Below, in pieces: positions 16,719-41,274 of a stretch of DNA of 64,000 nucleotides. The stretch spans positions 19,475-83,474 of the forward strand of contig JAUCBJ010001884.1 in NCBI GenBank assembly GCA_032718475.1, in the 5' to 3' direction. The position numbers were made by a program, and so were the translations under genes. Below the pieces are notes generated by a model. The model did no database searches and was not told the origin of the DNA. It was given only the letters and a program-made list of their open reading frames with translations. The stretch is from Nemertoderma westbladi (taxonomy: Eukaryota; Animalia; Xenacoelomorpha). Every line of letters starts with the position of its first letter. Positions within the stretch are counted from its first letter, which is position 1.

Positions 16719-19159
16719 TGTTTTCTTTTGGTCCAACCTTGGGACAGCCAAACATCGGGAAGATGGCAGCCTAGACCGTTAGGCCGTCAGCAACGCAGGG
16801 GAAAGATGTCCACAACACGCTAGCGCCCACATTGGATTTGACCGCGCACCCCCTTCGCCCTTCGAAATACTCCACTTGCCATGCAGCGCCCGCTTTATGA
16901 GGAAGGTAAGACTTTGTTCGACGCCCTTGCCCGCCGTAAGACCTATAGATCAGGGTAAGCGTGACGCCGTCCTGGACGCCGCAAAATTTAGGATCAAATA
17001 ATTATATTTAGGCAGAAACCCCCTTTGTCAGTCCTGCGAACCCCTGGGTTAACCTGTATTTCTCACAGGTGCGAACTATTGCCATTCGTCAGTACGCGAG
17101 TACATAGGTACGGACAGCATATGTTCCATAATTTAGTGATTCGTAGTATTGACTGTTTGGTACCGGTTCGCTTTGTAGAACATACATTAGTACCCCACCC
17201 CCCCTGCCTGAAGTTAGTTATTTGATCAGGCAAGGAGTATTTCTGCTACCGGCACACCGCTTGGCCTAGGGAGGTTTTATTAATATCCTACCGCGCCTTG
17301 CCACGTACTGATAGGTATTGCTGCTAACTACCGCGGCAACAAAGTTCTAAAATCAAATTTGTATACCAGATCAGCTAACGTCGGTAGCGATTAACCCCTA
17401 TTTCTTATCTTACAACCAGAATCTGGTATTAGTGCCGATCACGGGTGTAGTTACTAACACCGTGGTTGCCCATTGAGTTGTGGATAGGAAGGAGAGAGCT
17501 TTGACGTCATTTGTAAGTATAAAGTTCTACAAACGCGACTAGCTTATTTTAGTAGCTAGCGCATGGTATCATTTCGGTCAGAAAATCACTAAAACCTAGT
17601 GAAAAGGTATACACCAAAATTGTTTTATTTGTAACACACCCACACACACACGCCCTAAAACATATTTACCCTTAGAGTTCTACTAGTTATAGTGTACTAT
17701 ATATTACTTTAGGCAGAATTTATCTGTATTTGTAAATTAGGATCTGATATTTAGTTACGGCAATAGGGAGTATTTCATTTTCGTTATTAAACTGTTGTTT
17801 TCTGCTCAGCAGTATTGTTACATTAGGCACGACCCTCTTTCGACTGATTTAGGACTGAATCAGTGTTGTTACGCTAGGTCTGTTAACCCACTAGCTCGTA
17901 TATAAACCATATAAATCACACCGCGGCAAGTTACGGTATTTAGGACTGTCAGCGATAGTTAGGATTCGCTGCACGGGGATTGTTTTCCCGTGAGTTTGGT
18001 CTGTTACTGTAACTGTACATCTGCCTCACCGGTTAGAGGACAGGTATCCTTTTGTCTAGTTCGTAGGCATTAGACCCGCTCACGTACATAGAATAGACAC
18101 TAGGCTCTGTTCCTCGCCAGTAGTAGTTTGTGTATTGTATCTGTTTGTTTAGATATCCTGGACTCGGATTTGTTGTCAGATACTGTACGAGCCCGTATAC
18201 ATTACTAGATCTTACGGTAAGATACATCGTTACTAGGATCCGGTAAGCGGTATACTACTGGACCTTACAGTGAGAAATATTTTCTCTTACGAAAGTAGGA
18301 AATATATATCCAACCGTGAGGTTTCTCACATACTGTTAGCTATTGAAAGTAGGAGATATTTAAAAAATTAAGGTTAGTAAATTTAGTAATTTGAAGAACG
18401 TCCCCTGCTTCAGTAGGCTTTTAGGGTAGCTAGTACTTTCGTATTTAATATTTGACTAGCTAATAGTTAGTTTGTAGCATTTTGTTTTACGCCGTGTGTG
18501 TGCGGTGTTACTTTTCGGTACTTGAAAAGGTACATAGGGTTTAAAGACCAAGTTGTATCGGTACCTAGGAAGAATTTCGTAGCGTAGAAGTAAAACTCTC
18601 ACCTTCGACTTTTCAGGACTCAAGGACTCATTTCTGGACCGCTTCGAGGATTAGACCGCTTTTCGCAAAGTTTGGGAGACAATAAATTCGTCCACGCCGC
18701 CGAAAAACGGAACAACCCACGTCCGGTTTGTATTTGGGAATTTGCACGACTGGAAGATCAAAGGAATGTAAGTTTTACGACTCGTGTCGTTCAAACTTAA
18801 GAAAGCACAGTAGTACTCAAAATTTGTGGGTTTCACTGTCTAATTAGTAGTGTTGTTGGTACTTATTTTCCCGTTAGACATTGCTGTTTTGCCTATTATT
18901 TGTACTTGTTGATCTACATTTTGGTAACGTATACCGTTATCTCATTTATTCGTACAAATTTAGCCGGTAGGCTAGATTATTACATATTTCATTATATACT
19001 TTGATTTTATTTGTACCGGTTAGGGTATATATATGGTATATATATATATATATATATATACTAAGGTAAGTTTGACATTTCGACATTTTGACATTTCGAC
19101 ATTTTGATACTTTGACATTTTATTACCCGTACTTGACATATATAATAAGACATTTTACG

Positions 19160-19725
19160 CGTTTTACGCGAGTTGACCGCCCCGATGTCGAGATACGAGT
19201 TCTACACCTTACAGGTAAGGATAGAAAGTCGGGTACAACTTTACAAAGGTAAGAATAATCGATAAGTGCGAGGGAAAGCCTCATCCAGTTTAAATCAGTA
19301 GTAGGATTGGCTCAACAAGAGCAACTCGACCAACTGATGGGTGAGTCTGTTTCCGACACGTTGTTACATCCCGAAGAACTATATCGCCTGGACGGAAGGT
19401 TAGAAACGCTCACCGATTTTCTTCATAGATGTGGCGTACCAATCGAGGAACCGGATGTTGAACCGCAAGGGACGACGGAAGTTCTAGTTATGGAAGGCTT
19501 GCGAGCCTACCCTGTTCCACCACTGGACCGATCATTCGTCAGCGTACGGAGCGATGCCGGCGACGTTAGTAGAATGACATCGGTGATAACTCGACAACAA
19601 CAAGAGGTTGCACGCCAACAACAAGTCGCCGAGGAAGAAGCGCAACAACAGATGGCACAAGTTGCTATTGAGGGAGAGAAACAACGCCGAGAAGATGAGG
19701 CGAAAATCGCGAAACTTCAGGCCCA
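19160..19725 (+). pseudogene. Diverged, internally deleted duplicate of the BEL2 gag 5' region
   Basis: ORF 19307-19768 aligns to 20480-20910 (LAQQEQ..GRLETLT..DRSFVS..QQVAEEEAQ). Confidence 0.85.
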
Positions 19726-19950
19726 ATCTTTGTTAGTTTTATTTGTACCGGTTAGGGTATATATATGATATATATATATATCAAGGTAAGTTTGATATTT
19801 CGACATTTTGACATTTCGACATTCTGACTTTGTTGATTTATTTGTACCGGTTAGGGTATATATATACTATATATACCAGGGTAAGTTTGACACTTCAACA
19901 TTCAGACACTTTGACATTTTATTACCCGTACTTGACGTATATAATAAGAC

Positions 19951-22900
19951 ATGAGTGACACACCCCATTCGACAAGATACCCACCTACCGACTATGACTC
20001 GTGCGACCCGGACAGATCGACAGTAGACGAACCGAGAAGGAGAACCCGAGATTCCACCGATGTCACACCGCTTGCGTCGCCGGTACCCCGAACGGAAATA
20101 CCGGAAGCCGCAATGCGTAGCGACGGCAGAATCGAAGATTTCCTTACCGTCCTGCAGACTAAATCGCGGGAACCGGACATGGTAAGTTCGACTGGAAGCC
20201 AGGAGAACGTTATTAGGAGTATAGGAGGACACATGGCCCAGATTACTCGGAACCTCAGAGAAGGTTTTCGCGTTTTACGCGAGTTAACCGCCCCGATGTC
20301 GAGATACGAGTTCTACACATTACAGGTAAGGATAGAAAGTAGGGTACATGCCTCCGTAGAAAAACTTAAAGGTTTAGACGAACTTGCAGAGTTGCGTGGC
20401 GATAACTTTACTCAGGTAAAGATAATAGACAAGTTGGTAAGTGCGAGAGAAAGCCTTATCCAGTTTAAGTCGGTGATAAGATTGGCTCAACAGGAGCAGT
20501 TCGACCAACTTCTAGGTGAGTCAGTTTCGGACGCATTGTTACAACCCGAAGAGGAAGAAGAACTCTACTGCCTGGATGGGAGGTTGGAAACGCTCACCAA
20601 TTTTCTTCGTAGATGCGGCGTACCGATCGACGAACCGGAAGTCGAACCGCGAGGGACGACGGAAGTTCTTACTACGGAAGGCTCGTGAGCCTACCAAATT
20701 CCACCAATGGATAGATCGTTCGTTAGCATGCGGAGTGACATTGGCGATGTTAGTAGGACAGCGTCTGTAATTACTCGACAACAACAGGAGGTTGCACGCC
20801 GACAACAAGTCGCCGAGGAAGAAGCGCAACACCAGATGGCACAGATTGCTATTGAGGGAGAGAAACAACGTAGAGAAGATGAAACGAGAATTGCGCAACT
20901 CAAGGCACAAGCCGAAGTCGAAGCCTCAGAATTGAGAAGATTAGAGGAGGACTTAGCACGACAGAAAGAAGCATCTGACGCGCGTGCTCAGTTGGAGGCA
21001 CGGCAAATAAAATCACGTTTAGCTATACAGGAAGCGGAGTTAGCGGCACAACAACAAGTAGCGGATCGACGCGAAAGGGAGATGCAACTACAGTTCGAAC
21101 TGAATCGTAGATCGCGCGAGGCAGCGAACGCGCAAGCGGACCTTGAACTCGACGCGAGAGATAGATCTATAAGATCGCGAGCTGGACACGACTTGTCTGC
21201 CCTGGATCGCATGGAAGCTCGATATCGCGGAATTCAGAAGCGAATCGAGGAAGGAAGTGTGGGAGCGATAGATCGAGGAGAGGAGTTCGTCGAGGATTAC
21301 TGTAGACGTTTTCCCCAAGTTATTCCTATGCTCAAACCCACGACTCCGATAAAACTGGTCTTTGTTACGAAACCTAAGGAAATAATATATGTGCTTTCGA
21401 CGCAAGGCAACAGGTTTGTTGTGACGGAAATACCGCAACCTAGGGCGACTTCATCGCCAATTTTAGCAGGTAACATAACTAGTCCACCTACAGTAAGTCA
21501 TAGTCTACTTGTAGGAAGAGAGGAACCTGCGTTTATGACCATTAAACAGGTGAGTAAACCATTACAAGTTAAACCTGTGACGTGCTGTGCGAACCCAGTT
21601 ATTTATAGATCGACTACGAAACCCGACTATTTTACTCAACCCTTGACACAATGTTCGACGCAACCTACGACTTCATGGAAGGCTTGCGAGCCTATCGAAC
21701 TACGGAGGAGGATGGATATGGGTAGTACCCACGGGATCGAACAACGTATAAAGAGACCTATGACTTCGTGGAAGGCTTGCGAGCCTACCGAACAACGGAG
21801 AGCCGTAGATCCCAGACCACAACGGACGAGACCAAGAATAATACGCCGGACGCGAAACCGCCAGCCACCTTATCCGGACGACAACGACTCATCTAGTGAC
21901 TCGGAGTCGACGGAACGGGAAATATTCCGTACTGGAGCGGCGGATGATTACAAACGAGAGGAACGATCGACGAACACCTATATCGATAATCCTCCACGAG
22001 AAACACCCCAACAGAAACCCACGTTGAAACCAGCGGAAACGATCAGCGCCAAACAGTTCACCGAGATGACAGACCGAATAGCTCAACTCGAAGAACGACT
22101 CGAAGCGCAACCGTCGGATCGATCACGAACCAGCGTGGAGTTGGAACAACCTAGACAACATCGACCACCAAGGAGAGAACAGGAGACTAGACAGACTCCG
22201 ACCCATCGAGAAGAAGATCCCGTTAATAATTCCTACCGACGAACAACGCGCGGAAGGGAGCGACTGGACGACGCCGCCGAACAGGGACGCGGACAGTTGG
22301 ATTTGGTTAGCGAGATTGCGAAATTCGCGGCTAGACACGGATTACCGGCACAGCAACCGCCGAAGTTCTCTGGCAACGCGAAACACTGGCGCACACTGGT
22401 AGACTATGTAGAGTCCCAGATCGCTAAGTGTGCTTTCACCTCGACGGAGAAGTTTAATTACTTGCTCTTAGTCCTGTCTGGTGAGCTGAAACGATTAGCG
22501 GAAACCTTTATTGGTGTTCCCGATGCCTTTGAGTTGGCGTACGACCGTTTATATTCGATTTACGGAGGTAACGTCGCCATGGCTAAATCCATTATCGAAG
22601 ACCTCTGTAGAGGAGGCAGCATTTCGAAACCGATCGACCTTCTACGACTCGCGGACGAAATCAAAAACGCTATAGGGACTTTACGGTCCATTGGACAACT
22701 CGAATACGCTAACGCACCGACGGTTCTCATCAGGATAATCGGTCGACTTCATCATCGACTCCGACGAGAATGGCGACGCATCGAGTACCAGCGTGAAGAG
22801 GCCGGCGGGCTTTTAAAACTCACCGACATCTACCAACTGATTTCACGGGAGGCTGTGATCGAGACTCGATCGAACTATACCGATCACCATATCGCGGCGG

Positions 22901-25900
22901 AAGGGATAGCTATTTCTGCGCCGAATCGGACCAAACCATCTCCGACGAACGCGAAAGCCATTACCTACGCCACCCCTACTGAGACTTCTAAAGTTCTGAC
23001 GCCTATCGGCACCACGCAGCCACGACAACAGTTGCCAGCGGACTTTGTGGGATGCTCATACTGCGAGCGGAATGGCAGAAACCATAGCGGACATAAACTT
23101 TGTGGATGTCGTGCTTTTAAGGAGTTAGGGATTGAAGAAAGAAGACTCCAGATTCGATCATTAGATTCCTGCTGGAGATGTATGAAGCCAGGATACGTCC
23201 GGAAGGATTGCCCGAGCGACACATGTCCTCAGTGTGGACGTAACCATGACGCGTTGCTCCACACAACCAGTCATACTCCAACCAAACGCTTTCGACGAGA
23301 GCATCCAGATAAAGCGGCTAGATGCGACGCGCTTTATAAGGAGCGTGCGCCGCGCGAGATCCGTACCTTTTGTGCAGATTGTATGGATCAGTCAGGATCA
23401 TCGGACGAGGAGGAAGACGACACTTTCTACGTGCATGCAGGTGAGGAACAGCCATCGATAACGCTCCTCACACAGAACCAATTGAAAGGGTTTAGCGTGA
23501 TTCCTATAAAGATTACCGGAACCCGAGGGAGCAAGCATATATACGCTATCTTAGACTCTGCGTCATCGCATAGTTATGTCGACGAACAAGTAGCCGACGT
23601 GGTTACGGACATGAGTCAAGGTAAGACTGCTCAGTATACTGTAAGCAGCATGCATGGTAAGAGAGCGATCCCTGTGACGAGAGTAAAACTAACCTTAGAC
23701 ACTCTTCTTTCCAAAGCGGAACACAGCAAGGAGGAGCGCTCATTACTTCCGGTAAGAAATTTGACCTTTGCAGCTACGAAGGACTTTGGTAACTTGCTCG
23801 GCCCTGTGCCAGAGCAATCACCGGAAGATCGTAAGTATTTCCGACACCTTGGAATACCGGAATGTCCTGTTAATTATCGTTCCATTGCGATGTTAATTGG
23901 GACAGACCAGTTTAACTTACATCAGGTATGGGAGACACGCCCATCTGTTATTACAGCGGGCAACCCCTACGCATGTAGAACTCCCATAGGTTGGTATACT
24001 AGAGCACCAATACGTTCACTAGAGGTAAGTGACCAGGAGGACGACGTTTTGAGTACGTGTAGTTTATTGACTAACACGATAGATAATTCTCCTTCACACT
24101 CCTGTGGTCCAATTGTACGGACGGCACTACGACAGACTTGCGTCGCTAACGCAGACGCCACCGATACTGACGTAACTGATCTGGACACGACCACACGGAC
24201 CTCTGACTTACAACTACTTGCAGCAAACCAGGTTGTATTGTCTACTGAAGACCAAAGGGTTGTTGCCGTGGATGACTCGATGAACGAGGATTTTGGAAGG
24301 CTTGCGAGCCTACCGAAAAATCCGAAGGTCATTGACCCCACCCACCAAGCTTCGACACCGGTCGTTGATCTTGGAAGGCTTGCGAGCCTACCGACAGATC
24401 AAGAGGTTGTCAAACTGCCACAAGACGATTCGACGCCGACTAGTGACGCCGGAAGGCTTGTGAGCCTACCAGACACATTGACACTAGCCACCACAGCGGA
24501 CGAAGACGTGGACGAGGACCATGGCGCAGTGCAAGCAGCGCTTGACCGACTGCTGACTGAACGGACCATTCAATGGTTGGAACAGGATTCAGCAGAACCC
24601 GGTAGTTACGAGACCGCTATGTCAGAACAGGAAAAACGGTCATTAAATATTATGAGAGATACCATTCGCCAGACCGCGAATGGCCACTATGAGGTTGGTA
24701 TGTTGTGGCGCAATGGACAACCTAAACTCGTTAACAATTACCCGCTTGCTTTGAGGCGACTCAAATCAATAAGGCAGCGATTGTTGCGAGACGAGACGGC
24801 CCATATGCAATACAATGCACAACTTCAGACGTATCTCCAAAAGGGATACACCATTAGGATGTTAAATCCCGAGGTAACCTTAGACCAGACATATTACCTG
24901 CCACATCATTTTGTTCGACACCCGGACAAACCTGGCAAGGTGCGTGTAGTCAACGACTGTGCCGCGCTTTACCAAGGGATATCTATGAACAGGGAATTGA
25001 TGGACGGGCCGAATATGAACAATTACCTCATGGGAGTCCTAATGCGTTTTAGACAACGCAAAGTGGCTTTCACCTGTGACGTAGAGGCCATGTTTCACCA
25101 GGTTAAGGCTTTGGAGCGGGACAGGGACAGCTTGAGGTTTCTTTGGTATCTGGACGGAAACTTACAACTTCCGCCAGAAACTTACCAAATGCAGGTAAGA
25201 GTATTCGGAGCCAGGGACAGCCCCAACTGCACCATGTATGCATTAAAGCAGATCGCATTGGACAGACGAGACCAATTTGATCCAGAAGTAGTTCGGACCG
25301 TGGAACGAGATTTCTACGTGGATGACGGCCTCAAGAGTTCTGACACCTTGGAGCGCGCTACAACCGTAGCACACCAACTCCAAGATTGTCTCGCTGAGGG
25401 CGGATTTCACCTGACGAAGTTCGCTTCCAACGAACCCGAACTGGTGAACTCATTTGACCCGATGGATCGCAGTGGAGGTGATTTAGACTTAGACCTAGAA
25501 CCTCTGCCGACGACCAAAGTATTAGGACTTAGTTGGGACCCTAACACCGACAATTTTAGGGTACGTGTAAGGTCCAACGACCAGACTAGACCTCTCACTA
25601 AGAGGACTTGCTTATCGACCATGAGTCGATTGTATGACCCATTGTGTTTCATTAGTCCAGTGATCCTACATGCTAGGATCATACTCCGCAGCATTTGGCA
25701 AGCCGGACTGGAATGGGACGATCCCATCCCAGAAAAGTTAGCTGAGCGATGGAGGGACTGGGAAGCCCAACTGACGTTCCTACAAGACTATACCATACCG
25801 AGGGTATACTTTCCTTTGCAAACCACCTTTCCTGCTGATTTAGAGCTTCACAGCTTTAGTGACGCTAGCAAGGATGGATTGGGGGTTACTTTATACCTTA

Positions 25901-28737
25901 GACGACAAGTGACATCGGACAGCTACGATGTGTCTCTCGTTACTTCAAAGGCTAGAACAATGCCATTGAAGTATATGACTGTACCTCGTGGAGAGCTGCA
26001 AGCCGGGACGATATCCACCGATATTGTCAGTCTAGTTCAACGCGAGCTGGAGGCTAACTTGAAGGTCACATATTGGACGGATGCGACGTTGGTACTTTGG
26101 TACATAAACAATGAAGCGTTTGAATTCAAGACTTTTGTAGCCAACAGACGGGCTGAAATACTAGACCGGTCGCTCAAACAAGATTGGCGTCACTGTCCAG
26201 GGAAGCTGAACCCAGCTGACATCGTGTCGCGGGGGATGCAACCGCTTGACTTTTGTAAACCGGACAATAAATCCTTTTGGTTTAGAGGACCCGATTTCCT
26301 ACAGCGACCATCAGACGAATGGCCACCGTTATTCGACTAGACAACCAACACCATACCAGAGGGTGCCGAGATAAAAATCGACAAGGTTGTCAAGTCCAAA
26401 GCGAAAGCCAACGCCAAGGTCAAGAGGAAACAAGGACGGACGAAATCTGATGACCTGGACGCCAGACCTGACATTACGCCAGACGTCTCACCAGACATTC
26501 GACCAGACGCTTGTACGAATCCTTCGCCGGATGTTCCGCGGGAGATTTCACCAGACGTTTCGCCGGATTGTTCACCAGATTACTCGCCAGACTATTCACC
26601 AGAAGTGACACCAGATTGTTCTCCGGATTATTCGCCAGATTGTTTTATGGAACTCTCGACAGAATGTCTACCGGACGTCTCACCAGACTTTCCACCAGAC
26701 ATCTCGACAGACTGTCCACCAGACTTTGGACCAGACTTTCTGACAGAAGTTACGCCAGACAGACTTTGGGACCGACGACAGGACATTTCGCCAGACGTTC
26801 CGCGCTATGTCTCACCAGACGCCTCACCAGACTGTTCACCGGACGCTTCACCAGACTGTCTACTAGACACTCCACTAAAAGACCCATTGGAGCGGACTTT
26901 TAGAGACTTACCGAATTTGACTTCTTTGGACGACAAAGGTGTGGCCACAGCGATCACACTCCGCTCAAAGAAAGTACTTGACTTACCACCTACAGGTAAA
27001 CGTGTGACTAAGGTTAGGAAGCTTACAGGCTCACAGGAACACACTGATACTGTAGAGTTGAAACCGTTACTGTCAGTCGACACATTAGGTGCGGACGGTA
27101 AAGGTAAGACCGTAAAGGTTGACGTACTTGGGGACTCAGACAAACCTACCGGAAGGCCCGTGGGCCTACCAAGTCCAGACAAGTATCCACACTACGACTA
27201 CACCTTACCTGATGACATCACTAACACTTACATTGACCGGATAGTGAACCTAACTAGATCATGGACTGACGCATGCCGCAAGTTAGCATGGCTCAAACGT
27301 TTGAGACAATATGCCAGAGGCGAACGCGACTTTCCTAGAAGACTTACCTTAAAGGAAGTTGGCCACTGTGAAGTTGATATCATTCGACATTATCAATTGC
27401 GATATTTCGCACGAGAGTTCACAGCGATCAACCAAGGTAAACAGATTAAGTCTTCACCGATTTTGAGTTGGAGTCCGATTATTTACCAGGGCTTACTTTG
27501 TCACAAGTCCAGACTCCAAAACATCGACTTTGCACTTGACTTCAGGTATCCTATCATCATACCGCAACACCATGAATTACAGCGCGCTATGATACTGGAC
27601 GCACATGTACAACTCAAACACGTGGGTAGACACCACTGTCTATCACACTTACGCTCGAGGTTTGTACTGATTAGACCTAGTAAGGCACTGAGTTCGGTAA
27701 CACGGAACTGTATGATTTGTAAGAAGGTGCACGCGAGGATAGGACACCAGGAAATGAGTGAACTAGCATTAGCTAGACTACAGGCGTTTAGACCCCCTTT
27801 CACTGAGACAGGGATAGACTGTTTTGGACCCATAATCGTGAAACGCGGAAGGGTACAGGTAAAACGTTGGGGATTGATCTTCACTTGCATGGCCAGCAGA
27901 GCTGTCCATATTGAGCGTGTGACAGATTTAACCACCAATGCCTTTATCCTAGCCTTACGGCGATTTATCGCTAGACGTGGATTGGTCAAATCCATTTACT
28001 GCGACCAAGGGACAAACTTTGTGGGTGCACGGAACGAGATAACCAGAGCTTTGAGAAAGTTGGACCAAAACCAGATTTCCGAGGAACTACATCCTCACCG
28101 TATTGTTTGGAATTTCAACACTCCAGACAGTCCGTGGAGAGGCGGCGTTTGGGAAAGGCTGATTGGCTCAATAAAGACAGCTATGGCTAAAGTGATACCG
28201 ACGCAACACATAATGACAGACGACCAACTGACAACGTTACTAATAGAAATCGAAGCGATCTTAAACACTAGACCGATCGCTTTGATCCCAGACAATAACG
28301 ACGCACAGTTTGCCTTGACACCAGCGCACCTGCTTATGCAGGCGCCGACGACATTGTTGCCCATTTCGGTACCCGTTGATAGTGACAGATACGGCAACAA
28401 GGCTTGGAAAATCACTCAACTACTTGCAAATAAATTCTGGGAAATATGGCAGAAATATTATTTGCCCTCTATTTCGACCAGAACCTCTTGGTATCTAAAT
28501 ACCCGATGTTTGAGACGTGGTGACCATGTTTTATTGGCTGAAGCTAATCTGAAAAGACGGTTTTGGCTGACTGGAGTCATTTTGACCACACACCCTACAT
28601 CTGGTGTAGTGAGGACAGTTACTGTAAGGACCATCGACGGGCGTACCGTAGATAGGCCTGTACAACGTCTCGTACTCCTTGAGGAAACTAGAAACGAGAC
28701 AGGAGACTACAAATCTCCACCCAATATTAGTAAATAG
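19951..28737 (+). pseudogene. BEL/Pao gag-pol polyprotein (~2,930 codons) with two in-frame stops (20686-20688 TGA, 26338-26340 TAG)
   Basis: Three ORFs in one frame; PPKFSGNAKHW, Zn knuckles, ILDSASS (PR), CDVEAMF/FYVDD (RT), HSFSDAS (RH), HVQLKH..CMIC, GIDCFGP, CDQGTNF, GGVWERL (IN). Confidence 0.93.
26455..26865 (+). repeat. 12-bp coding tandem repeat (x-S-P-D)n between RNase H and integrase
   Basis: Repeated TC(A/G)CCAGAC-NNN units, in frame with pol. Confidence 0.85.
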
Positions 28738-30435
28738 ATGTGGGACCTTTGATGGCCGCCACATAGCTTTACCGTATTTTAGCAATTTAGTATTTTGTAT
28801 TACTGTATGTGCATTTGTAATCCTCTTCACTGTAGATAGAGACAGCGGTGGAATTCCATTGTCTTTATATGTGAACATGGAGGGTAGTACCCTTATGTAT
28901 CACATAGGAGCGGGATTGTGTGTACAGTAGGAATGGAATTCCACTTGGAACCCACAAGTGAGACAATTTTTCAAAAATTATTAGACAAATCCATTTATTT
29001 GGATTTAAATTTAAGAAAAACGATTCTCCAGTGAATGCAAATTCTAGAATACAGCTAGATAAAAATTAAAATTGGGGAGGACAAGAGCGGATGGAAGGCT
29101 TGCGAGCCTACCGATAAATTTTTTTGGAAAAAGAAAACTGGCCTTGTTCTACGTAGTCGTGTCTACTATTATTTAGACCAATTAATTCTCGACTGCACTA
29201 TTTTCTTTTGGGAACGTAGTGGGGAAATTAAAAGGTGAGTATTTTAGACTCGCGGCTAGTTTACCCGGAATTCGTTTTTTATCGGCACAATATTTTTGGA
29301 TTAGGAGCCAGTGCGAAATCACACGAACCCGAAGTCATTAGGCAAATGGGTTGGGGTTTAGAGCAGAGTTGAGCCAAAAGCCGACAAACTCTAAGTCACC
29401 TCACATCTAACCTCTATTTTGTGCTTCATCTAGTAGAATCGTAACGATATGTAACCATATATATTCGTATACGATGGCGGAGAAGATGTATAAGGAGTTA
29501 CGTCAAGGGTTTACGCAAGAACAAGAGCACCAGGCGCCATTTAATCGTTATGGAGCTAAAAACTTTAGTGTGTTTGGAGTGGAGAGTATGGCTAGGAGTA
29601 CAGCCAAGCTCGCTAAATCCAAGGCGGACCCGAATGTTACGCGACAGCGGTTGGACGCATATAACAAAAGAATGGAGGAATTACACGCGGAGTTCAATGC
29701 GTTATATTCCTACGATGCGTTATGCGACGCTAGCGACATTTGCGAGGATCCAGACACTAAGATACGCCGATTGTATCATACGCTGCAATACTTGACGGTA
29801 AATGAACCCTTACCTGCAGCTAGAGACGAATTCGAAGGAATGCATCTTTATAGACGCGCTCGAGGAGCGGATCCAGAGACCAAGGACGCGTTCTCCATAT
29901 ACAAACTGTTTTATAAATGTGGAGCGTGTATGCGTGAGCAAGACAACGCGATTCCTATGCGGTTGAACTCGGAGAACCCCGAGCCGATATTAGCGCGATG
30001 TTCACACCACCAAAGTCTATGTTACTAAGAAGGCGGATACCCTTTGACAAATCCGTATCATTCGTTTAAAATGAGTGGACCGAACGCGGGTGAAATTGTT
30101 ATTTACGAACCCAAATTAGTCGAACCAGACGTCTACAGAATGGTAGTGGACGAGTCTAATAAGTCGACACAAGAGAAACGGGAAGCTTTGAGCCTCTACA
30201 GGGCGTACAAGGCGTACGAGAAAGGCGAGATCGAGGAGTTCGGTGGAAGGCTCGCGAGCCTACCATTCTATTGGATATCCCACGATCAAACCGAACCCAA
30301 GGAGATGACACCCGAGCTCTTCGATAGTATCACCTTTGCTCAGCGTTTGTCGCAGAGACTACAGATACCTCATGTCGAGATGACGCGAGAACCTCAGCCC
30401 CATTCTACTGGAGCGATAGTACCGGTTGCGAGACC

Positions 30436-33400
30436 TGGTATGTCAGGCTGTCCGGTACATAGCCAGACATCTGTAGCCTGTAGGCTGAGGTAAAAGTGGA
30501 TGCTGGAGCGACACAACCGGTCAGTATAATATAATATAAGCAGAATGCAAGCAAGATATGTAGGCCCGTGCCATAGACAGTAAGGGGGAATAATGAAATA
30601 GGCCTATACTGTATATATCCATACCAACTCCCCCTTTAGGCGATTTTGTCAGATCAAAATTGTTTACAGTGAACCCCATACACCATATTATAGTTTAAAA
30701 ATAATAAATGACTATTCTAGTGTAATAATTAATTTTTATAGTCTCCAAATCGAACGGTAGGTTTTGTTACACGAGTGCTGCGGCGTATTACGCTCTTACT
30801 TTCAGTTTCCAACTCCGGTGTTGGAACTGTTTTCTGTTGGGTTGGGTTCGGTGGTGTTTCGAGTTCAATGACCTCGTGGTAGCGACGGAGAAAACGTCTG
30901 TTTCGCCACCATGTACGACCTGAAGGTAGTTTAACGTGGTAGTCTCGTCGTTTTCCGGCCCCAACTATAATACCGACACGATCCCAACGTTTAGATCTGG
31001 AGTCTTGGAGGCGAACTTTTGTGCCTATTAGGAATGGTTTGAGGTTCCGCGCCGTTGAATTGTAGTGTTTGACGGCTTTCTCGCGAATAAATTCGTGTCG
31101 TGCGTCAGCTGTCTCGGCTGACTGCTGCCACTTCGGGTCAAATGAAGTGTGATGGGCTGGTACACGCGATCGCAGGTTGCGCCCAAAAACGATCTGGCTT
31201 GGTGAGCGACCATCCGCGTGTGGTGTGTTCCGTACCTCGAGTAAACCTTCGAGGAATTCCTCAGAATTTATGTCTGAGGTTGTCGTTTTTGCCAATAGAC
31301 CTTTAATGAGTTTTACGTGGCATTCCGCATGCCCGTTACTGGACGGAAAATGCGGCGTACTAGGCGCCCATTCGACCCCCCAACGTTGCAGGAATTTCCT
31401 AAAGTTGGATGCGGCGAATTGAGGTCCTCCATCGCTTCGAAGTTTGGTTGGAACGCCTAAGTCGACGAAACATTTCCGTAACACGCTGACGATTTGTTGT
31501 GATGTTGTTTATTCCCGGCCAGTAGACTGCGGACCGCGCTCTTTGTTTCGTCCGCGTCATACCCTGGTGGGCAGCGTGTAGGCGTTCTAGAATTTCGGCT
31601 CGTTTCGCACTAGGTATAACCAGGCGTGGACCATATAATACCAGGCCGTTATCTACGGAGAGTTCGTTATGTATGGATTTAAATTGCTGGACGAATCCGG
31701 AGGTGTGGTTTTCAGTTGTGAATCCGCTTAGGATTTCAGTAACTAATTGCTGATAGGCCTTATCGTTTAAGGCTACCTTCCGGATTTCCTCGATAACGGG
31801 GTCTGTTGTAGGTGGTTCTAGAACGTTTTTAGGATCTAAGTCCCGAGTATTAGTTAATGCTATCCGTATAGCTGCTATGGTTCTTGTGACATCGTCATCT
31901 TCCTTTAATAATTCATCAGTGGTATCGGGGTCATCCACTGGAGCTCGGCTGAGACAGTCTGCAATTTTATTGTCTTTACCTTTTTGCCACACTAATTCAA
32001 ATTGATATTTCGATTGCAGCTGAGCTTTAATTCGCTGGAGTTTTGTATTATCGACTTGATCCAGGGTTTGTTTATTGAAGATTGAAAGTAAAGGCCGATG
32101 GTCAGTCATAACTTTAAAACTTTCTAATCCAGCTAAATATAGGTGGCATTTACTCATTGCATATTTTATAGCAATGGCTTCCAATTCTATTGTGGCATAC
32201 CGGGTTTCGGCGTCCGATATAAATCGGCTTCCACAGGCAATGAGCTTCCATTTATTATTATTATTTTGCAGTAAATCGAAGCCAAATCCGTGCAATCGAC
32301 TGGCGTCTACTTCTAACCGTGTTTCAGCGTGCGGATCGAAGGGTACCAGGATTGGAGGTTTTAGAAGTGCGTATTTAACAGCCTCGAATGCATTATCATG
32401 CATTATTTCCCATGTAAAATGGTTGCGAGTTCGTAGTAACTCGCGCAACGGAGTCGCTGCAGCGCTGACTTCCGAGGAAAAGCAACCGAGTTGGTTAACG
32501 AGTCCCATAAAACTTCTGAGTTCACTTATGTTAGTTGGTTTGGGAAACTCGGAGATTGCCTTTACTTTGTTGGGGTCTGCCTCGATGCCGTTGTGTGAAA
32601 CGATATATCCTGCGAACTTTACTCGTTCTTGAGCGAAGTTGAACTTTTCAGGATGGAGGGTGATGCCAAAATCCCGACAGCGTTGTAGAACCGAACGAAC
32701 GCGTTCAACGTGAGTGTCAAACTCGACATCCTCGATGAGTAGGTCGTCTACGATTTTATTTATGTTGGCCATACCCTCAAAAGCCATGTCTCCCCTATAA
32801 TTATATGAGTCCCCGGTGGATATGAAGCCCATCGGGGCCCGGCAGTACCGGAACCGGCCCCACGGCGTTAAGAAGGTAGTGAGGTCTCGCGATTCTTCCG
32901 CCAACTCGACTTGCCAATAACCAGACTTAGCGTCAATTTTTGTGAAATAACGCGCGTCTGGTGTGCGGTCTGAGACAACGTCGAAAGGAGTTTTGGCATT
33001 GTGTATAGTTCGTTTCACCTGATTATTTAATTTGGTAAGGTCAACCGTGATACGAATTTCATCCGGTCGACCGGGTTTGGGGCAAACAACCATGGGATGA
33101 CACCAATCTGTGGCCCGGTCACCCACCCGTTCAATGATGCCTTTGTCCAACATGTCGTTGAGTTCGGCGTGGGCTTTATCTCTGTAGGCGTAGGGTATAG
33201 AGCGGGTGGCGTAGATGCACAAAGGTTTTGCACCTTCCTTGACTTCTATAGTCATAGGGGGACCCAGCATCGGTTTAAGTTGGCCTTTGATGGCAAAGAC
33301 GTCACTAAACTCTTCCAGAAGTTTTTGTTTTATTTTGTCTACGAGTTCAGCATCTATGTTAATAGGTGCAACCACTTTATTTTCCTTCACTAAATGGAGT

Positions 33401-35415
33401 GGTGTGGGGAATTCGTCGTGGACGATGTTGAAGGCTTTACAAGCTGTAAAGGAAAGATAAATATCTTTAATTCCGTCACAAATATAAACCCATTCGTTGT
33501 AACGCATGTTTTCAATCTGTAGAGTTAGTTTTAAACGTCCTATACATTTTATTGGATTGCTGTTTATTGCTTCCAGTGGCTCGTCTAATTCTCTAAGTTT
33601 ATTTATAGATATACCGAGGCGATTTAGAATACCGATTCCGCCAGCGGTGACGTCTGCGCCGGTGTCTGCAATGCAAGCGCTTGTTGTTAGCAGTTTCCCC
33701 GTACCGGTATGCACGAATTGTACGGAGATGCGAGGTTTACCGGCCTCCCGGGCTAGTTCGCGTGGTTCGACGCCAATTTTCGCGAGGGAAATCGCACCGG
33801 AAGTTGTCTTCTTTGGTTGGCGACATAGATGGGTGAAGTGGCCGATACGTTCGCATTTTTTGCATTCGCGGCCGATGGCTTTACACGGTTTATCTTTCTC
33901 GTGAGGCCAAACTCCACCACATTTCCAGCAGCGATTATTGTCTCGTATTTGTGGATGGGGTTTGAATTGTCGACCTTTACTGGAGCTCCGTTGGCTATCT
34001 GACTTACTAAAATTACGCCCTCGGTTCTGAGGTTTAACTGCGTTAACTTTGTATGTCAGTCGTTGATCTTCCCGAACAGCCAGCTCCCGATTACGGCAAA
34101 AATCGACAGTTTCATCGCGGGATAGGGCAGGCCTTTTACCCAAAAGTTCCTGACGTACCTCCTCATCCCGTATACCGCAAACTATTAAAGTGGAGATCCA
34201 GTCCTCCTTTGTCATAACTTCGATGTTTGCGTCATCCACCAGTTCGCACAACTGAATGTAGTAATCGTCGAACGACTGTTTTTCTTCCTGTTTAGTCCGT
34301 ACCAGTTTGTAACGGTCTACAGTTATATTCTGTTGTGCGCGGAGGTGTTCCCGTATTTTTACGAGGATTTCGTCCGTTGACAGTCGGGTATCTTGAGGAA
34401 TTTTGACAGCATAATGCATCCGGTTTAGGAAATCAGGGCTGCAGTATGAAAAGAACGTTGCCACCTGATCTTCCATAGGTTTGCTGTCGAGTTTTGTCAC
34501 CCGGGCATAATTGCGCCATGTTGTCTCCCACCGTTTAAATGTTTTGTAGGAAACGTCATCCTCGATAATGTTTGGCGGGTGTACAGTGAGTTTGGTTGCC
34601 TCGCGGTCTTGGGGACGTCTGGAGCTTCCGTGCGTTGCCGATCCCGGGCCCGCAGCTGCTATTACGTCGCGCTCTTCCCGCAATCCCTCAAGTAAACGCT
34701 GTTGGTTTTGATCGACGAGGTAGAGGAGTTGTCTGTGCTCTTCCGCCCGTTCTCGTCGTTCAACCCGCTGTTCTTCCATTCGTTTAGCATCCTGGTCGAC
34801 AAAGTGCGCGAGGAGTTTAGCTAAATCGGAACCTCCGACTTCTCCGGTTTGTTCAGGTTCTGATTCTGCTCCTTCTACGAACTTTAGCAACCGTTTTCTA
34901 AGAACCGTTGTTGCCGTTCTGTCGCTGTACTTAATTCCGGCATTTGCGAGGTGTGCTTTAATAGTTGCCCGGTCAAGGTGTTCTATCGAAGCTGGATCAA
35001 TTTCCCACGTTTCATCCTGGGTTGGGAGTTCGTCCATCACGCAAATTAAATATGTTTTTTTAATATATGAAATTTCAAATTATTACCGGTAATTATTAAG
35101 CAAGCATAGTCAGAACGTGCAGAAGTGCAGTCGATCGATGATCGATCGGTGATATTGCAGTGCAGTTTATTGCGTAAGTTCAAGCGCAGCGCGGTACTGG
35201 TACTGCGCCTATCTCACTGCGCCATGGTATGTCCGGCTGTCCGGTACATAGCCAGACATCTGTAGCCTGTAGGCTGAGGTAAAAGTGGATGCTGGAGCGA
35301 CACAACCGGTCAGTATAATATAATATAAGCAGAATGCAAGCAAGATATGTAGGCCCGTGCCATAGACAGTAAGGGGGAATAATGAAATAGGCCTATACTG
35401 TATATATCCATACCA
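30436..35415 (-). mobile_element. Gypsy (Mag-like) LTR retrotransposon nested in BEL2 ORF2
   Basis: 191-bp LTRs 30436-30626 and 35225-35415 (TGGTATG...CATACCA, 1 mismatch); TSD AGACC; PBS TGGCGCAGTGAG; PPT AAGGGGGAGT. Confidence 0.95.
30729..35040 (-). pseudogene. Gypsy gag-pol with an internal deletion/frameshift in the integrase N-terminal part (~31500)
   Basis: Double knuckle CWKCG..H..C..CKKCERIGHFTHLC, IADTGA, KIDAKSGYWQ, IVDD, VDAS, TDHRPL, LHAAHQG..YWPG; then jumps to SDGGPQF/SNGHAE, with no CxxC or first catalytic D. Confidence 0.9.
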
Positions 35416-38344
35416 AGACCAACTAGTTTTCCTATTAGTATACCGACCCGGAAGGAGACAACTTACGAGATCCCTATAGTTGAACACCCGGAGATCATTT
35501 CGAACCTGGACTTCCTCCCATCGGTTACCTTTGGTGATGTGTTAGAGTCAGCCGAGTTGCGTAAAGTAATAGTTCAAAAAATCGTACGCAACGTGCCTCC
35601 ACATATTACGGACTTTAAGGAAGTGGATCGCGCGGGGACGGATATCGCACCTTGTATCTTGCGAGGATATCTGACGAGAACGATTCGATTATGGATCGGA
35701 GTTGGAACGTTTGAGACCGACACCGATATCACGACCAATTGGACCGGTAAACCTATTAGTTTCGATGATGAAAAGTCGATTGGGAGAATTTGGAACCCTA
35801 CCGACGATTTACTCGACGATTGGGACGTGACTAGCCGATCTCTAAAGGAGAATGGTTATATGTTTTACGATGATGAAGGAGGAAGCCATCAGCAAAGCCT
35901 CACTTCGAAGACTATACAGATTAGAGCACCAGATGGCGTGTTACATGTCTTCAGCCGACAGAGGAGTGATAGAAAGATGCCTATGCCGGAAGGAACGACG
36001 CAAAGACACGCGATGATAAAACGGATAGTTAAATCCATGGACCTGGCTTGTAGCATAGAAGCTAGGATATTACCAAAGGCCGTGCGAGACGTTGTGTTGG
36101 ACAAGAGCATCGTCAAGATCGGATCCGGTGTACGGGATGACCTTATTAGCGACTTTGCAGGGATGCCCACGGAAGAGGACCGATTGCCTACGCCATACGT
36201 GGATACTAGACCATTGTTGCTTTGGGCTATCGAGCAAGGATATTTTAGGGAGTATAACACGCTAAAAACTGGGACGGGTTATATCTCATATCTAATGTTC
36301 AGTTGGGATTACAAGGAGAGTAAGAGGAGCAAATACACGGATGTATACGGAGAGGGAGATACCCCCGGCGTAAACGAGTTCGAGTCACAGTTGAAGTGGC
36401 GAGGTTGCGTGTATTGGGCGATTACTTCACCTCCGCGAATAATCTTGCAATACTATTTAGCGATAGAATCTTCGGTTAACGTTTGTTTCATCGCGGATGT
36501 AGTATCCAGAACCCTAAAGCGACACCCGTTATGTCTCGGCGAAGGACATACCTTTTACGATGGAGGAAGGACGCATACTGATGTATTCCGACGATTTCTC
36601 CAACCCTTTTATAACACCGATGCGCACTGCGAAGTTTTCACGTGAGCGGGACTTAGCGTTTTCAGGGACGTCTATCTCACTCACGCGGGAAGTCTAGTCG
36701 ACAGACCGTCGATGTTAACGTTAGTACCCTACGACGGGGAACGCCACGCGGAATTCGAACGCCCGGAAGGATCCTGGAAGGCTCGCGAGCCTACCGCCCA
36801 TCACGACAATGTGGATCCGACCGAGTTGGCGCTAATAGACGAACCGTTGCGGCAACTCATAGAGATAGAGGAGAACCTTCCGAGGAAGACGCGAACTGAG
36901 ATACGCGAGTTGGAGAAAAGCGATGCCATGGTTTGTGTACAACCTACGGAGACGAACATACCGACTGACCCGGATGATGAGAATTATCACGTGGACGGTA
37001 GCGCTCGCCGGTAGACGGTGCACCCCGACAACAAGAATACTTGGAACTTTCAAACTGTGGTGAACAAGATTACCGCCGGAGAATTCGATAAACTGCGAGT
37101 TGAACAGCGGAATCGAGGAGCCTGGCATTCGATAGCTTGGGCATACCGGAGCGCATTTTATCACAAACGCGTAACCTCGTGTATTCTGGACGAGACCGAC
37201 GTTTTGCGTGAGACTGGCTTCAAGGCCACGTCGTTAGCAGAGAAGACGCGTCACCCACAGGATGATCAGCAATTTCGTATACTCAAAGCCCAGAAGGCCG
37301 GACAAGAGATAAAGAAGATAGTAAATGTCGCCGAGAGGACGACATCGAAGTCGCAAATCCGGATGACTCGGGGCACGGTTTCCCTCGCTAGAGAACCACG
37401 CGGAGGGACGGGATACGCTTTGCCGGAACCCATTAGGATTCAAACGACGTCAGAGAGCGAGGTGTCAGCGGACGGAACAGTCCCACCCTTTCGACTTCCT
37501 CATAGCGTTGTGGAGACTCGATCCGATGTTAAGCCGACAGTTGGAATCGGACGAGGATTTAGAGGATTGAGCGCACGACGGATGTGCGAAACTCCCGTCG
37601 TCCCCTTTCCTAGCGTTTTGGAACCACCGACAACTCGACGCCGAAGTCCGAGCCCAGTTCGACCTCGACCACCACCCAATCGCAATAGAGGACGTGGACG
37701 AGCCCGCTCAGCAAAGGAATAGGAAAGCGAGAAGAAGGAAGGCTTGCGAGCCTATATTTATATTCGGATATTATATTTCGACACTATATTTGGGTATTTA
37801 TATCGGACATTATATTTGAATGTTGGGTTTGGAAGAACAAGATATGGAAAGGAAGGCTTGCGAGCCTACCGTTAGCAATTAGTGCTCAGGAGAAGATATC
37901 CAGACCAGCAGGACGAACTTTCATATCGTCAAAGGGACACTTTAAGACTTATTTGGAAGTTATTAGCGCTTTATGTTTATTTTATATTTGAACTGATTTA
38001 ATTTGGTGGAAGTTTATTATGTATATTTACAATATATAAAGATTTATTGAAAGAAGTTACAATTATTTGTTCGATTTGTTTTGATTTATTTGTTCTGATT
38101 TGTTTAATTTGTTTATCTTGATAACCGAAAGCATTTTGTATTTTAGGCACTAAAGTTAATTGGTAAATTTGTATTTGTATGTACGATCGATTGTATTTAC
38201 GCCGTATCTGCAATATTAAGTATGCAATAATTAGATAGTGATTATTTTATATTTTAGGTCCCACCAGTAGATTTAGAAGTAGTTTGTAAATATTTTGTAT
38301 TTCGATTGGTGAAAACAGTCTTACTTACTGTTTTCATGGAGCGG

Positions 38345-38930
38345 TGATGAATTATTTCACTATAAGATAGCATTTGTAGTTTAACTTTAACGTAAAAACT
38401 TTCGAAAATCCGACGCATTTTGATTAAGTTACAGTAATGTAATATGCCTATTCATATTTGTATACATAAAACCCCTAGTTACTCTCGTGGCGTAGTGGTC
38501 AGATGGTTAAGGCGTTGGTTACATTACAGATAGGTTACGAGTTCGAATCCCGGTCGGGAAATTTGTATTTTGGGGCCATTTATTTTCATTTGGTACAGAT
38601 TGGTAAGCCAATGAGGTGCGTACAACGTATCGAACGATGAGTTGGGCCAATCATAGGGCATGAAATATCTTATTGCTCCAATGTGAGGCCATCGAATACT
38701 CTCGAAGGTTCTAGTGGATTCTATGTCCCAGATTTAGTATATAAAGGGCTGGTTTGCCTTCGGTTATCACACACATTTGTACTTCACTACTTCTTACTTA
38801 CTCTTGTAAACTTGCTGCACTAGTTGCACTAATCATTTCGTTATACTTTGTTGGTTTCTTGTTGAAACTATTGTAATTCTGTTTGATAAATCTTTTGCTA
38901 AACTGTAAATACACTGCAAACTCCTGAACA
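38345..38930 (+). repeat. 3' LTR core of BEL2
   Basis: Near-identical to 16133-16718. Confidence 0.8.
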
Positions 38931-40991
38931 TGTTTTCTTTTGGTCCAACCTTGGGACAGCCAAACATCGGGAAGATGGCAGCCTAGACCGTTAGGCCGTC
39001 AGCAACGCAGGGGAAAGATGTCCACAACACGCTAGCGCCCACATTGGATTTGACCGCGCACCCCCTTCGCCCTTCGTAATACTCCACTTGCCATGCAGCG
39101 CCCGCTTTATGAGGAAGGTAAGACTTTGTTCGACGCCCTTGCCCGCCGTAAGACCTATAGATCAGGGTAAGCGTGACGCCGTCCTGGACGCCGCAAAATT
39201 TAGGATCAAATAATTATATTTAGGCAGAAACCCCCTTTGTCAGTCCTGCATTTACTACTGTTCAATATTTAAATAATCCAATGGAAACAAAGATACTTGA
39301 ATCATGAGACGTGAATTTTAAGTTTACTTTTTATTCATCCTCTGTGTTTGTATGTGAAAGAGCCGAATATTATTTATTACCAGTGCTGTATGTAGAGATA
39401 TGAGTTTCCGATTCTGTTATTACATTTGTCTGATAATCAGATACCTGACATATACCGATACTTGCCTAACAACTCAACCCTACCGGACCTGAAATGAAAA
39501 ATCATTGTTATCAGGACTGCTACGCGTGGCACCTACGCGTAGCACCTACGCGTGGTTTCAAAATACCTACGCGTAGTTCCAAAATAACTACGCGTAGTTT
39601 TAAAACACCTACGCGTTGTTGTTAAAAAGGCAGTAAGTCTGGCCCTACCGGTAAATGACAGGAATGGAAGTTACAAACTACGCGTAGCTACGCGTAGCTA
39701 CGCGTAGGCCTACGCGTAGCTACGCGTAGGCCTACGCGTAGGTCGAAAAGATTTACCCCGAACTATTGCCATTCGTCAGTACGCGAGTACATAGGTACGG
39801 ACAGCATATGTTCCATAATTTAGTGATTCGTAGTACTGACTGTTTGGTACCGGTTCGCTTTGTAGAACATACATTAGTACCCCCCCCCCCCCTGCCTGAA
39901 GTTAGTTATTTGATCAGGCAAGGAGTATTTCTGCTACCGGCACACCGCTTGGCCTAGCACCTAGGGAGGTTTTATTAATATCCTACCGCGCCTTGCCACG
40001 TACTGATAGGTATTGCTGCTAACTACCGCGGCAACAAAGTTCTAGAATCAAATTTGTATACCAGATCAGCTAACGTACGGTAGCGATTAACCCCTATTTC
40101 TTATCTTACAACCAGAATCTGGTATTAGTGCCGATCACGGGTGTAGTTACTAACACCGTGGTTACCCATTGAGTTGTGGATAGGAAGGAGAGAGCTTTGA
40201 CGTCATTTGTAAGTATAAAGTTCTACAAACGCGACCAGCTTATTTTAGTAGCTAGCGCATGGCTGCATGGTATCATTTCGGTCAGAAAATCACTAAAACC
40301 TAGTGAAAAGATATACACCAAAATTGTTTTATTTGTAACACACCCACACACACACGCCCTACAGCCCTAAAACATATTTACCCTTAGAGTTCTACTAGTT
40401 ATAGCGTACTATATATTACTTTAGGCAGAATTTATCTGTATTTGTAAATTAGGATCTGATATTTAGTTACGGCAATAGGGAGTATTTCATTTTCGTTATT
40501 AAACTGTTGTTTTCTGCTCAGCAGTATTGTTACATTAGGCACGACCCTCTTTCGACTGATTTAGGACTGAATCAGTGTTGTTACGCTAGGTCTGTTAACC
40601 CACTAGCTCGTATATAAACCATATAAATCACACCGCGGCAAGTTACGGTATTTAGGACTGTCAGCGATAGTTAGGATTCGCTGCGCGGGGATTGTTTTCC
40701 CGTGAGTTTGGTCTGTTACTGTAACTGTACATCTGCCTCACCGGTTAGAGGACAGCTGTATCCTTTTGTCTAGTTCGTAGGCATTAGACCCGCTCACGTA
40801 CATAGAATAGACACTAGGCTCTGTTCCTCGCCAGTAGTAGTTTGTGTATTGTATCTGTTTGTTTAGATATCCTGGACTGGGATTTGTTGTCAGATACTGT
40901 ACGAGCCCGTATACATTACTAGATCTTACGGTAAGATACATCGTTACTAGGATCCGGTAAGCGGTATACTACTGGACAGCTGGACCTTACA
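38931..40991 (+). repeat. Continuation of the terminal direct repeat (copy of 16719-18269) with indels
   Basis: Collinear with the 5' copy except a ~510-bp replacement (39250-39758) and several short insertions. Confidence 0.9.
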
Positions 40992-41274
40992 CCTGGTGCA
41001 ATTCATATATATTCCAACGAGACTAGAACGCCTAAAACCCCTATTGCGGAAAAAAAAGGCTTCAAATAATCAATTTACAAAATTGAAATATTTCAAAATT
41101 TGGGGCTGGCACCAAAATTTGGCACCCGCCGCTAAAAACAAGATTAAAATTTCTAGCTTAGGCCTATTTTATATGAATTCCTTTTAGTTATTTTCAGTTA
41201 GTCTTTTAGTTAGTAGCGTTAGTTTCAGAGAGGGGGGGGGTGGGGGGTAGAGTTATATTGACTGACATGGGCAG

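Follow-up and report, generated by a model that had tools for sequence, protein, structure and literature searches.

A large retrotransposon and its repeated motif

The stretch of DNA considered here (the window, 64,000 nucleotides (nt) in all) comes from the xenacoelomorph Nemertoderma westbladi (GenBank assembly GCA_032718475.1, contig JAUCBJ010001884.1, positions 19,475 to 83,474 of the forward strand) and contains a BEL/Pao long terminal repeat (LTR) retrotransposon, BEL2, that spans 16133-40991 between CCTGG target-site duplications (TSDs). The insertion is a defective member of a large family; its gag-pol frame is followed by an extra open reading frame (ORF), and a Gypsy element is nested within it (Table 1). 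Through its internal region is scattered a palindromic motif of 20 nt, GGAAGGCT-YGYG-AGCCTACC, at 13 sites. The motif is real, well beyond chance and constrained at the level of the bases; any function given to it below is a proposal.

The 13 starts listed in the initial annotation are exact. Ten copies match the motif perfectly, one has 1 mismatch and two have 2; no further site appears in the window at up to 5 mismatches, and none of 100 dinucleotide shuffles contains a match. The palindrome makes these 13 sites match on the minus strand as well, where no others are added. As that annotation had also said, every copy is in sense orientation and restricted, within the window, to the internal region: there are none in either LTR, in the nested Gypsy, in a second BEL fragment or in the ~39 kb outside BEL2.

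These copies are not independent. Because several sit in duplications (one of 490 bp, one of 93 nt and one with 78-nt spacing), they reduce to about eight contexts, or nine if 37737 and 37851, which are 114 nt apart with unrelated flanks, are split. The eight contexts lie 1.0-2.8 kb apart, more evenly spaced than random (p=0.014). All eight share one orientation, for which simple arithmetic gives p ~0.008 under random orientation; direct duplication would give the same result. Their flanks resemble one another only at the random level (7.9 versus 7.6 of 30 positions), so that the boundary of the motif is sharp at 20 nt. No TSD accompanies any copy, the longest flanking repeat being 1-4 nt at inconsistent offsets; with 13 of 13 copies in sense, an inserted micro-element resembling a miniature inverted-repeat transposable element (MITE) is rejected.

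Table 1. BEL2, its parts and the 13 motif copies, in window coordinates
Feature	Position	Strand	Remarks
Left TSD	16128..16132	+	5 bp, CCTGG
5' LTR	16133..18269	+	2,137 bp; TG...CA ends; 0 motif copies
Partial duplicate of gag 5' part	19237..19726	+	490 bp; 80% identical to 20404-20910
Motif copy 1	19492..19511	+	in partial gag duplicate, upstream of gag start; EG..AY frame
gag-pol frame	19948..28737	+	DUF1759, Peptidase_A17, Integrase_H2C2, DUF5641; in-frame stops 20686-20688, 26338-26340
Motif copy 2	20676..20695	+	gag N-terminal extension; EG..AY frame; homologue cover 0.00
Motif copy 3	21677..21696	+	1 mismatch; unit 1 of 93-nt duplication; WKACEP frame
Motif copy 4	21770..21789	+	unit 2 of 93-nt duplication; WKA(C/R)EP frame
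Motif copy 5	24295..24314	+	protease-reverse transcriptase linker; 78-nt spacing; GRLASLP frame
Motif copy 6	24373..24392	+	same linker; GRL(A/V)SLP/GRPVGLP frame
Motif copy 7	24451..24470	+	same linker; GRL(A/V)SLP/GRPVGLP frame
Motif copy 8	27151..27170	+	linker before integrase; GRL(A/V)SLP/GRPVGLP frame; U-A closing pair replaced by C-G, both arms altered
Motif copy 9	29093..29112	+	non-coding, between pol and extra ORF
Extra ORF	29474..37722	+	~1,087 codons without nested Gypsy; frame continues across insertion site
Motif copy 10	30245..30264	+	in extra ORF; GRLASLP frame
Nested Gypsy	30436..35415	-	4,985 bp; 191-bp LTRs (1 mismatch); TSD AGACC; 0 motif copies
Exo II-like stretch	36070..36144	+	WRN/EXD-type DEDDy exonuclease; weak match, first seen by eye
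Motif copy 11	36776..36795	+	in extra ORF; WKAREP frame
Motif copy 12	37737..37756	+	2 mismatches at 3' end; non-coding
Motif copy 13	37851..37870	+	non-coding, 3' untranslated region
3' LTR	38345..40991	+	~510-bp insertion at 39250-39758; 0 motif copies
Right TSD	40992..40996	+	5 bp, CCTGG

Constraint on the bases

The main ORFs hold nine copies, with all three reading frames in use, three copies (29093, 37737 and 37851) lie outside any ORF, and one is in the partial gag duplicate. The copy at 19492 had been counted as coding: its EG..AY frame is present, but it stands upstream of the gag start in a rare duplicate, and for this reason nine rather than ten copies are assigned to the main ORFs. 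When 120 homologues are compared, cover reaches at least 50% for 1,523 of 2,927 residues; the seven copies in gag-pol sit in linkers to which at most 6% of the homologues align, and none of the 120 contains the motif peptides GRLASLP, EG..AY or WKACEP.

The tandem pairs 24295/24373 and 21677/21770 allow motif and surroundings to be compared directly. Over the two pairs together, 1 of 40 motif bases has changed, as against 67 of 131 in the flanks; for third codon positions alone the figures are 0 of 13 and 22 of 44 (Fisher p=8e-4). These flanks are truly homologous, with 27 of 58 and 37 of 73 bases identical where the null means are 14.9 and 18.7. For the other pairings among the 78-nt units, two in number, the trend is alike (motif 1 of 20, flanks 38 of 58 and 40 of 58); they were excluded from the test, their flanks not being significantly related. 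Three frames, non-coding copies and unchanged third positions therefore bear out the earlier claim that nucleic acid, not protein, is constrained: protein selection leaves the conservation of the motif unexplained, and base-level selection or homogenisation does explain it.

Hairpins and copy-to-copy pairing

Each copy is predicted to form a hairpin of 2+5 bp with an A-A mismatch, at -7.6 kcal/mol, and within 60 nt of context the hairpin is predicted with P>0.95 for nine of the 13. Both strands of four of the seven variants give that same energy, and for the rest they differ by <1 kcal/mol; a hairpin so nearly strand-symmetric cannot explain the strand bias. The fold itself is as first described, as is the compensatory change at 27151, where both arms are altered and pairing is preserved. 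Extension of the stem by the flanks, which had also been proposed, holds at 21770, 24295 and 24373 only; with a mean z of -0.27 over the 13 copies it is rejected as a general feature.

The loops are UGCG in eight copies, CGUG in two, CGCG in two and UGUG in one. Pyrimidines alone vary; none of the 13 departs from the A-A mismatch or from the two loop Gs. Every loop observed is self-complementary on the sense RNA when G·U pairs are allowed, and on the antisense the same positions become C-A mismatches. Decay of CpG alone is disfavoured as the source of the YGYG pattern, the observed-to-expected CpG ratio being 1.2 in BEL2 and no G-to-A change being present.

For two copies of the common variant the prediction is a duplex of 14 bp with ends of 2 bp at -30.7 kcal/mol, against -15.2 for two hairpins and -22.9 for the antisense homoduplex. 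Across the seven natural variants the predicted homoduplex ranges from -22.6 to -34.9 kcal/mol; the sense form is the more stable in six (by 3.5-8.8 kcal/mol) and equal in the seventh. Close copies form three clusters, and in each of them the model joins one copy to another at P ~1.

Copies of the family in sequencing runs

Contig pieces aligning to BEL2 number 18,762 in run X1 and 8,760 in run X3. Summed depth is mostly 21,000-68,000 over BEL2 and ~110-150 over the nested Gypsy; such depth does not measure copy number, and the source sample may itself be X1. Run X5, in which the share is small, was excluded. Variable places among the family contigs number 1,775, of which 40 were covered here. 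No RNA run is listed among those that contain the element, a result that carries no information on expression. The Gypsy is missing from other family copies, the joint 30430-35416 being found in one contig of X1 and two of X4, and over the partial gag duplicate the depth of family contigs is about tenfold lower.

In X3 a single contig passes directly from 37733 to 37847; in X1, single contigs have a shortened spacer at 37774-37844 or run on to 37875 and start again at 37847. The number of 3' motif copies thus seems to vary within the family; the sides of these joints are 21-25 nt, and such joints can stem from repeats. Run X4 has loose ends at 21758 and 21801, in one contig each and possibly in different contigs, a hint of a diverged relative that retains only the surroundings of the motif.

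Searches and controls

The motif, at up to 3 mismatches, occurs in none of 80 BEL loci from metagenomes, and it is absent from the viral contigs searched. GTDB gave 2 exact matches in 596 Gb of prokaryote genomes, against ~4 expected by arithmetic, and these are put down to chance. Rfam returned five weak matches to motif copies, none at the gathering score; a likeness to the histone stem-loop, noticed by eye, is not among them. No LTR retrotransposon with a near-identical palindrome spread over its reading frames came up in the literature searched, most subscription journals and Repbase lying outside that search.

In a more general scan, any 18-mer recurring at dispersed sites was sought with 3 mismatches allowed (a scan for exact 12-mers misses the gag-pol half of BEL2). 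Each half of BEL2 has such a word at four sites. Among 55 clusters of other BEL loci (412 kb, with loci cut at 12 kb) none reaches four; three sites are found in 13 clusters, two in 41 and one in 1. The nested Gypsy has two and the other BEL fragment three. A separate BEL locus, L084, carries a non-palindromic word of 14-18 nt at three dispersed sites (491, 4665 and 7212).

Affiliation and size of the element

BEL2 has features by which BEL/Pao elements are recognised: the domain order protease, reverse transcriptase, RNase H, integrase; LTRs with TG...CA ends; and a TSD. Alignment of its LTRs over 2,136 bases shows 22 mismatches. BEL-type homologues number 252 at E<=1e-20, the best at 46% identity and the named ones mostly from marine invertebrates; no close relative of Pol was found among viral or metagenome contigs. 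Without the nested Gypsy and the 510-bp LTR insertion the element measures 19.4 kb. The described range of the Belpaoviridae is 4.2-10 kb for the genome and 0.2-1.2 kb for the LTR (PMC8742986); BEL2 exceeds both, with an LTR of 2.1 kb and a length about twice the family maximum.

One further BEL/Pao feature, an 18-nt primer-binding site for tRNA-Arg or -Gly, can be looked for next to the 5' LTR. The bases at 18270-18290 do not start with TGG, and no primer-binding site of that type is evident there. The first 10 of them have a sole exact complement, inside the 5' LTR itself at 17057-17066, which is either self-priming or chance; the site resembles a 3' splice site and has been removed from the 3' LTR by the insertion. 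A tRNA-like stretch in each LTR (16270-16352 and 38482-38564) shows look-alikes of the A and B boxes by eye, and ARAGORN calls no tRNA there.

The word GGTAAG, which resembles a 5' splice site, is over-represented on the sense strand of 16133-38345 (19 occurrences versus 3.3 expected; at most 9 in 300 resamples). Some occurrences fall within duplicated segments, and the other BEL fragment leans the same way; the excess possibly reflects splicing, or a U1-based safeguard against early polyadenylation. At 26454-26900, in the part that separates RNase H from integrase, (S/T)PDx units are encoded by tandem repeats of 12 nt, and the insertion at 39250-39758 in the 3' LTR bears palindromic repeats of the type CTACGCGTAG.

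The extra reading frame

Besides the Gypsy, three stops (30026-30028, 36643-36645 and 37012-37014) break the ORF downstream of pol. Pfam gives nothing at the cut-off for it, whether env-like, PF01612 or any other domain. For its uninterrupted stretch of 406 amino acids, at 35425-36642, the searches found no homologue and no match in PDB or the Atlas; one match among 1.84 billion representatives is a spurious repeat protein. The N- and C-terminal parts were compared with Pfam only. Two predicted folds are of low confidence (predicted local distance difference test, pLDDT, 33 and 38).

A weak resemblance to DEDDy exonucleases is nevertheless suggested by profile comparison. A profile of nine bacterial WRN-like exonucleases, their identity checked against solved structures and the family chosen after the likeness had been seen by eye, ranks this ORF first of 267 in the window (E=0.0055; 0 of 2,000 shuffles). 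A broader profile that includes RNase D gives E=0.094, and hhalign a probability of 61.5. The flanking blocks, the acidic motifs Exo I and Exo III in that order, are equalled in 1 of 400 shuffles when summed, and Exo III alone in 32 of 400; the best placements, which are tentative, differ from those picked by eye. The frame ends in an Arg/Pro-rich tail (37600-37719), and a Cys/His cluster can be seen by eye in its N-terminal part (29900-30025). A role for this ORF in the function of the motif is possible but unsupported.

An exonuclease in this position would have a precedent. In the bdelloid LTR elements Juno and Vesta, ORF3 encodes a DEDDy exonuclease with strong matches and intact catalytic residues (PMC5408684). 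BEL2 shares with them an extra ORF after pol, here with a putative exonuclease likeness; its match, by contrast, is weak, its ORF is of ~1,087 codons and it belongs to another lineage. That account, as far as it was consulted, does not mention a hairpin or stem-loop motif for Juno or Vesta.

Relation to known systems

Each ingredient of the motif has a precedent; in position or geometry the motif departs from the Sirevirus, VANC, Egl and Ty1 PAL cases alike.

PAL1 and PAL2 of Ty1 are self-complementary RNA sequences that pair between genomes with help from Gag (PMC6844567). The BEL2 motif is likewise self-complementary on the genomic strand, as a predicted homoduplex. Ty1, however, has two sites in its 5' untranslated region, whereas BEL2 has ~8 contexts across the internal region, mostly in ORFs, where pairing is predicted; and at most one copy, that at 19492 in the rare duplicate, lies upstream of gag, so that the 5'-leader location of the PAL sites is not shared. 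The dispersed packaging signals of MS2 and hepatitis B virus have a common recognition feature and variable affinity (PMC6281560). There too, many short stem-loops with a common motif are strung along a genome; the BEL2 copies differ in being near-identical over 20 nt, and capsid binding in BEL2 is hypothetical. The literature searched yielded no case of dispersed packaging signals from an LTR retrotransposon.

The target of VANC in the plant VANDAL DNA transposons is a non-palindromic DNA motif of 9 bp, mainly in non-coding parts (PMC5735166). Like it, the BEL2 motif is short, in one orientation, multiplied by tandem repeats, situated beside an extra element gene and family-specific, this last as far as the window and the 80 distant loci go; it differs in that nine of its 13 copies lie in the main ORFs. 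The repeated-motif boxes of Sireviruses (plant Ty1/copia elements), with a CGG-CCG core, cluster in the LTRs, upstream of the promoter, and before env (PMC2829016). These are again multi-copy palindromes in an LTR retrotransposon, CpG-rich and conserved amid divergent flanks, but BEL2 has no LTR copy, most of its copies are coding and its core is another.

Signals read by Egl-BicD, including the I-factor localisation signal (ILS), consist of two helices of >=6 bp, with a short segment between them and 3' bulges, are not repeated in sequence and have a host-protein reader (PMC13186709). A stem-loop inside retrotransposon coding sequence is common to both cases, and the Egl reader has an exonuclease-homology domain. 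The analogy with Egalitarian drawn in the initial annotation nevertheless fails on geometry: the BEL2 core is 5 bp plus 2 bp, and its extension is not general. A further analogy offered there was with HIV Rev and the Rev response element (RRE).

What the motif might do

The reading that we favour, tentatively and with something short of even confidence, is that the motif would be a repeated signal in BEL2 RNA, whose copies pair to condense or dimerise a long genome for packaging. It is suggested by the size of the element, the even spread of the motif, the lack of copies in the LTRs and the wobble-compatible loops. Also in its favour are the confinement and single orientation of the copies, their base-level conservation, their placement in variable linkers, the greater predicted stability of the sense duplex, the predicted pairing within clusters, the paired change at 27151 and the lack of a comparable motif in the 55 other BEL clusters. 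Hairpins would form first, during transcription; chaperoning by the nucleocapsid of Gag would then turn them into copy-to-copy duplexes, within one RNA or between two co-packaged RNAs, as PAL1 and PAL2 do in Ty1 at one site; an RNA of ~17 kb would require many such ties.

A number of points weigh against pairing for packaging. The pairing is a prediction throughout, and equilibrium folding favours long duplexes for any palindrome; hairpins formed co-transcriptionally may persist instead. The argument from the loops is post hoc and draws on no more than six or seven changes, one or more of them private to this insertion; a paired change occurs once. Contact with a protein, or plain copying, would account for the invariant loop Gs equally well. 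Template switching, too, would homogenise the copies and keep them identical, and 3' copies seem to be gained and lost among single family contigs. Placement in linkers counts for little when taken by contexts (0.48^4, or ~0.05), and any tolerated insertion would show it; the third 78-nt unit resembles its neighbours at P=0.09 and 0.22, which is not significant. The 55 control clusters average 7.5 kb, have at most 44% Pol identity and are mostly incomplete.

Alternatively, each copy might be a stand-alone RNA hairpin with a protein reader (Gag, the product of the extra ORF or a host factor), which would touch it at the fixed A-A mismatch and the loop Gs; the unspliced RNA would in this way be exported, localised or protected. 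The invariance of these positions and the confident hairpin prediction in most copies are consistent with this; the richness in GGTAAG makes an aid to export or against splicing plausible; and the extra ORF, with its weak hint of an exonuclease fold and its Arg-rich tail, recalls Egl, which binds stem-loops through its exonuclease-homology domain. The energy of the hairpin is, on the other hand, the same on both strands, close copies are predicted to pair together, and the stem, not generally extended by its flanks, falls short of what Egl-type signals need; at gathering level no Rfam family is reached, the exonuclease match is weak and the reader putative. We hold this reading to be unlikely. 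A double-stranded DNA site is unlikely too: a dimeric protein of the element or the host would bind it, in anti-silencing or in support of transcription of a 19-kb element. The dyad symmetry around a CpG-rich core would suit such a protein, the even spacing would suit chromatin cover, an orphan extra ORF is at hand, and both the VANC motifs and the Sirevirus boxes offer parallels; these parallels, however, lie in non-coding parts or LTRs, whereas nine of the 13 BEL2 copies are coding and no LTR holds one. With a symmetric DNA site, mirror changes should be tolerated as well, whether G to A in the core or at the mismatch in either arm, and the 13 copies show none; the paired change at 27151, being symmetric in DNA as well, is neutral. 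VANC motifs, too, form one-way arrays grown by tandem repeats, so that strand bias is indecisive between RNA and DNA and the DNA reading stays open. The cis-acting RNA element first proposed is upheld in part: constraint on nucleic acid, lack of TSDs, absence of the motif outside the element within the window and lack of a comparable motif in the 55 other BEL clusters agree with it. Action as RNA is not established, with the strand bias indecisive and the hairpin strand-symmetric, and a link of Gag or of the extra ORF to the motif is unsupported.

Finally, the motif might be a functionless or selfish micro-repeat, which would stall reverse transcriptase or pair with a co-packaged RNA and be copied directly by template switches. 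Template switching keeps orientation, and comparable palindromes in coding regions occur in Rickettsia and in fungal mitochondria. The sharp boundaries agree with such copying, as do the deletions and duplications between 3' copies in family contigs, and the common variants have no stop in any sense frame where the antisense has one. Against it, there is neither TSD nor shared flank, conversion would have to stop at precisely 20 bases in each context, which is difficult to achieve, spacing is more even than random, copy 27151 has changed in both arms, and none of the 55 other BEL clusters is similar; we consider it quite unlikely. The most far-reaching form of the pairing proposal, in which a dozen identical self-pairing 20-mers, placed throughout the genes of a giant BEL in all three frames, would act as a zipper that condenses and dimerises a 17-kb RNA and an exonuclease-fold protein of the element would read or remodel them, we regard as improbable.

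The replication of BEL/Pao elements, and with it the selection, dimerisation and packaging of their RNA, is poorly understood, and their virion is unknown (PMC8742986). An element at about twice the size limit with one sharply bounded repeated signal offers a direct way into the question of how retroelements cope with very large RNAs. If the zipper reading were true, it would be a distributed, sequence-repeated code for genome compaction, new for LTR retrotransposons in the literature searched; a DNA site would bring an equivalent of VANC anti-silencing to an animal retrotransposon; and spread by template switching would still show clearly how a micro-repeat can colonise reading frames.

The rest of the window

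The second BEL element (9149-13345, minus strand) is truncated, with DUF1759, a long gag extension and no motif. Downstream of BEL2, a long intron-free ORF at 42759-46577 has no Pfam match; its N-terminus is reminiscent of FAM21/WASHC2. An array of a 38-bp tandem satellite occupies 49800-53300, an ISXO2-like transposase lies at 58043-59104 (minus strand), and two parts of a LIN9 gene are found at 59799-60695 and 63335-63976 (plus strand).

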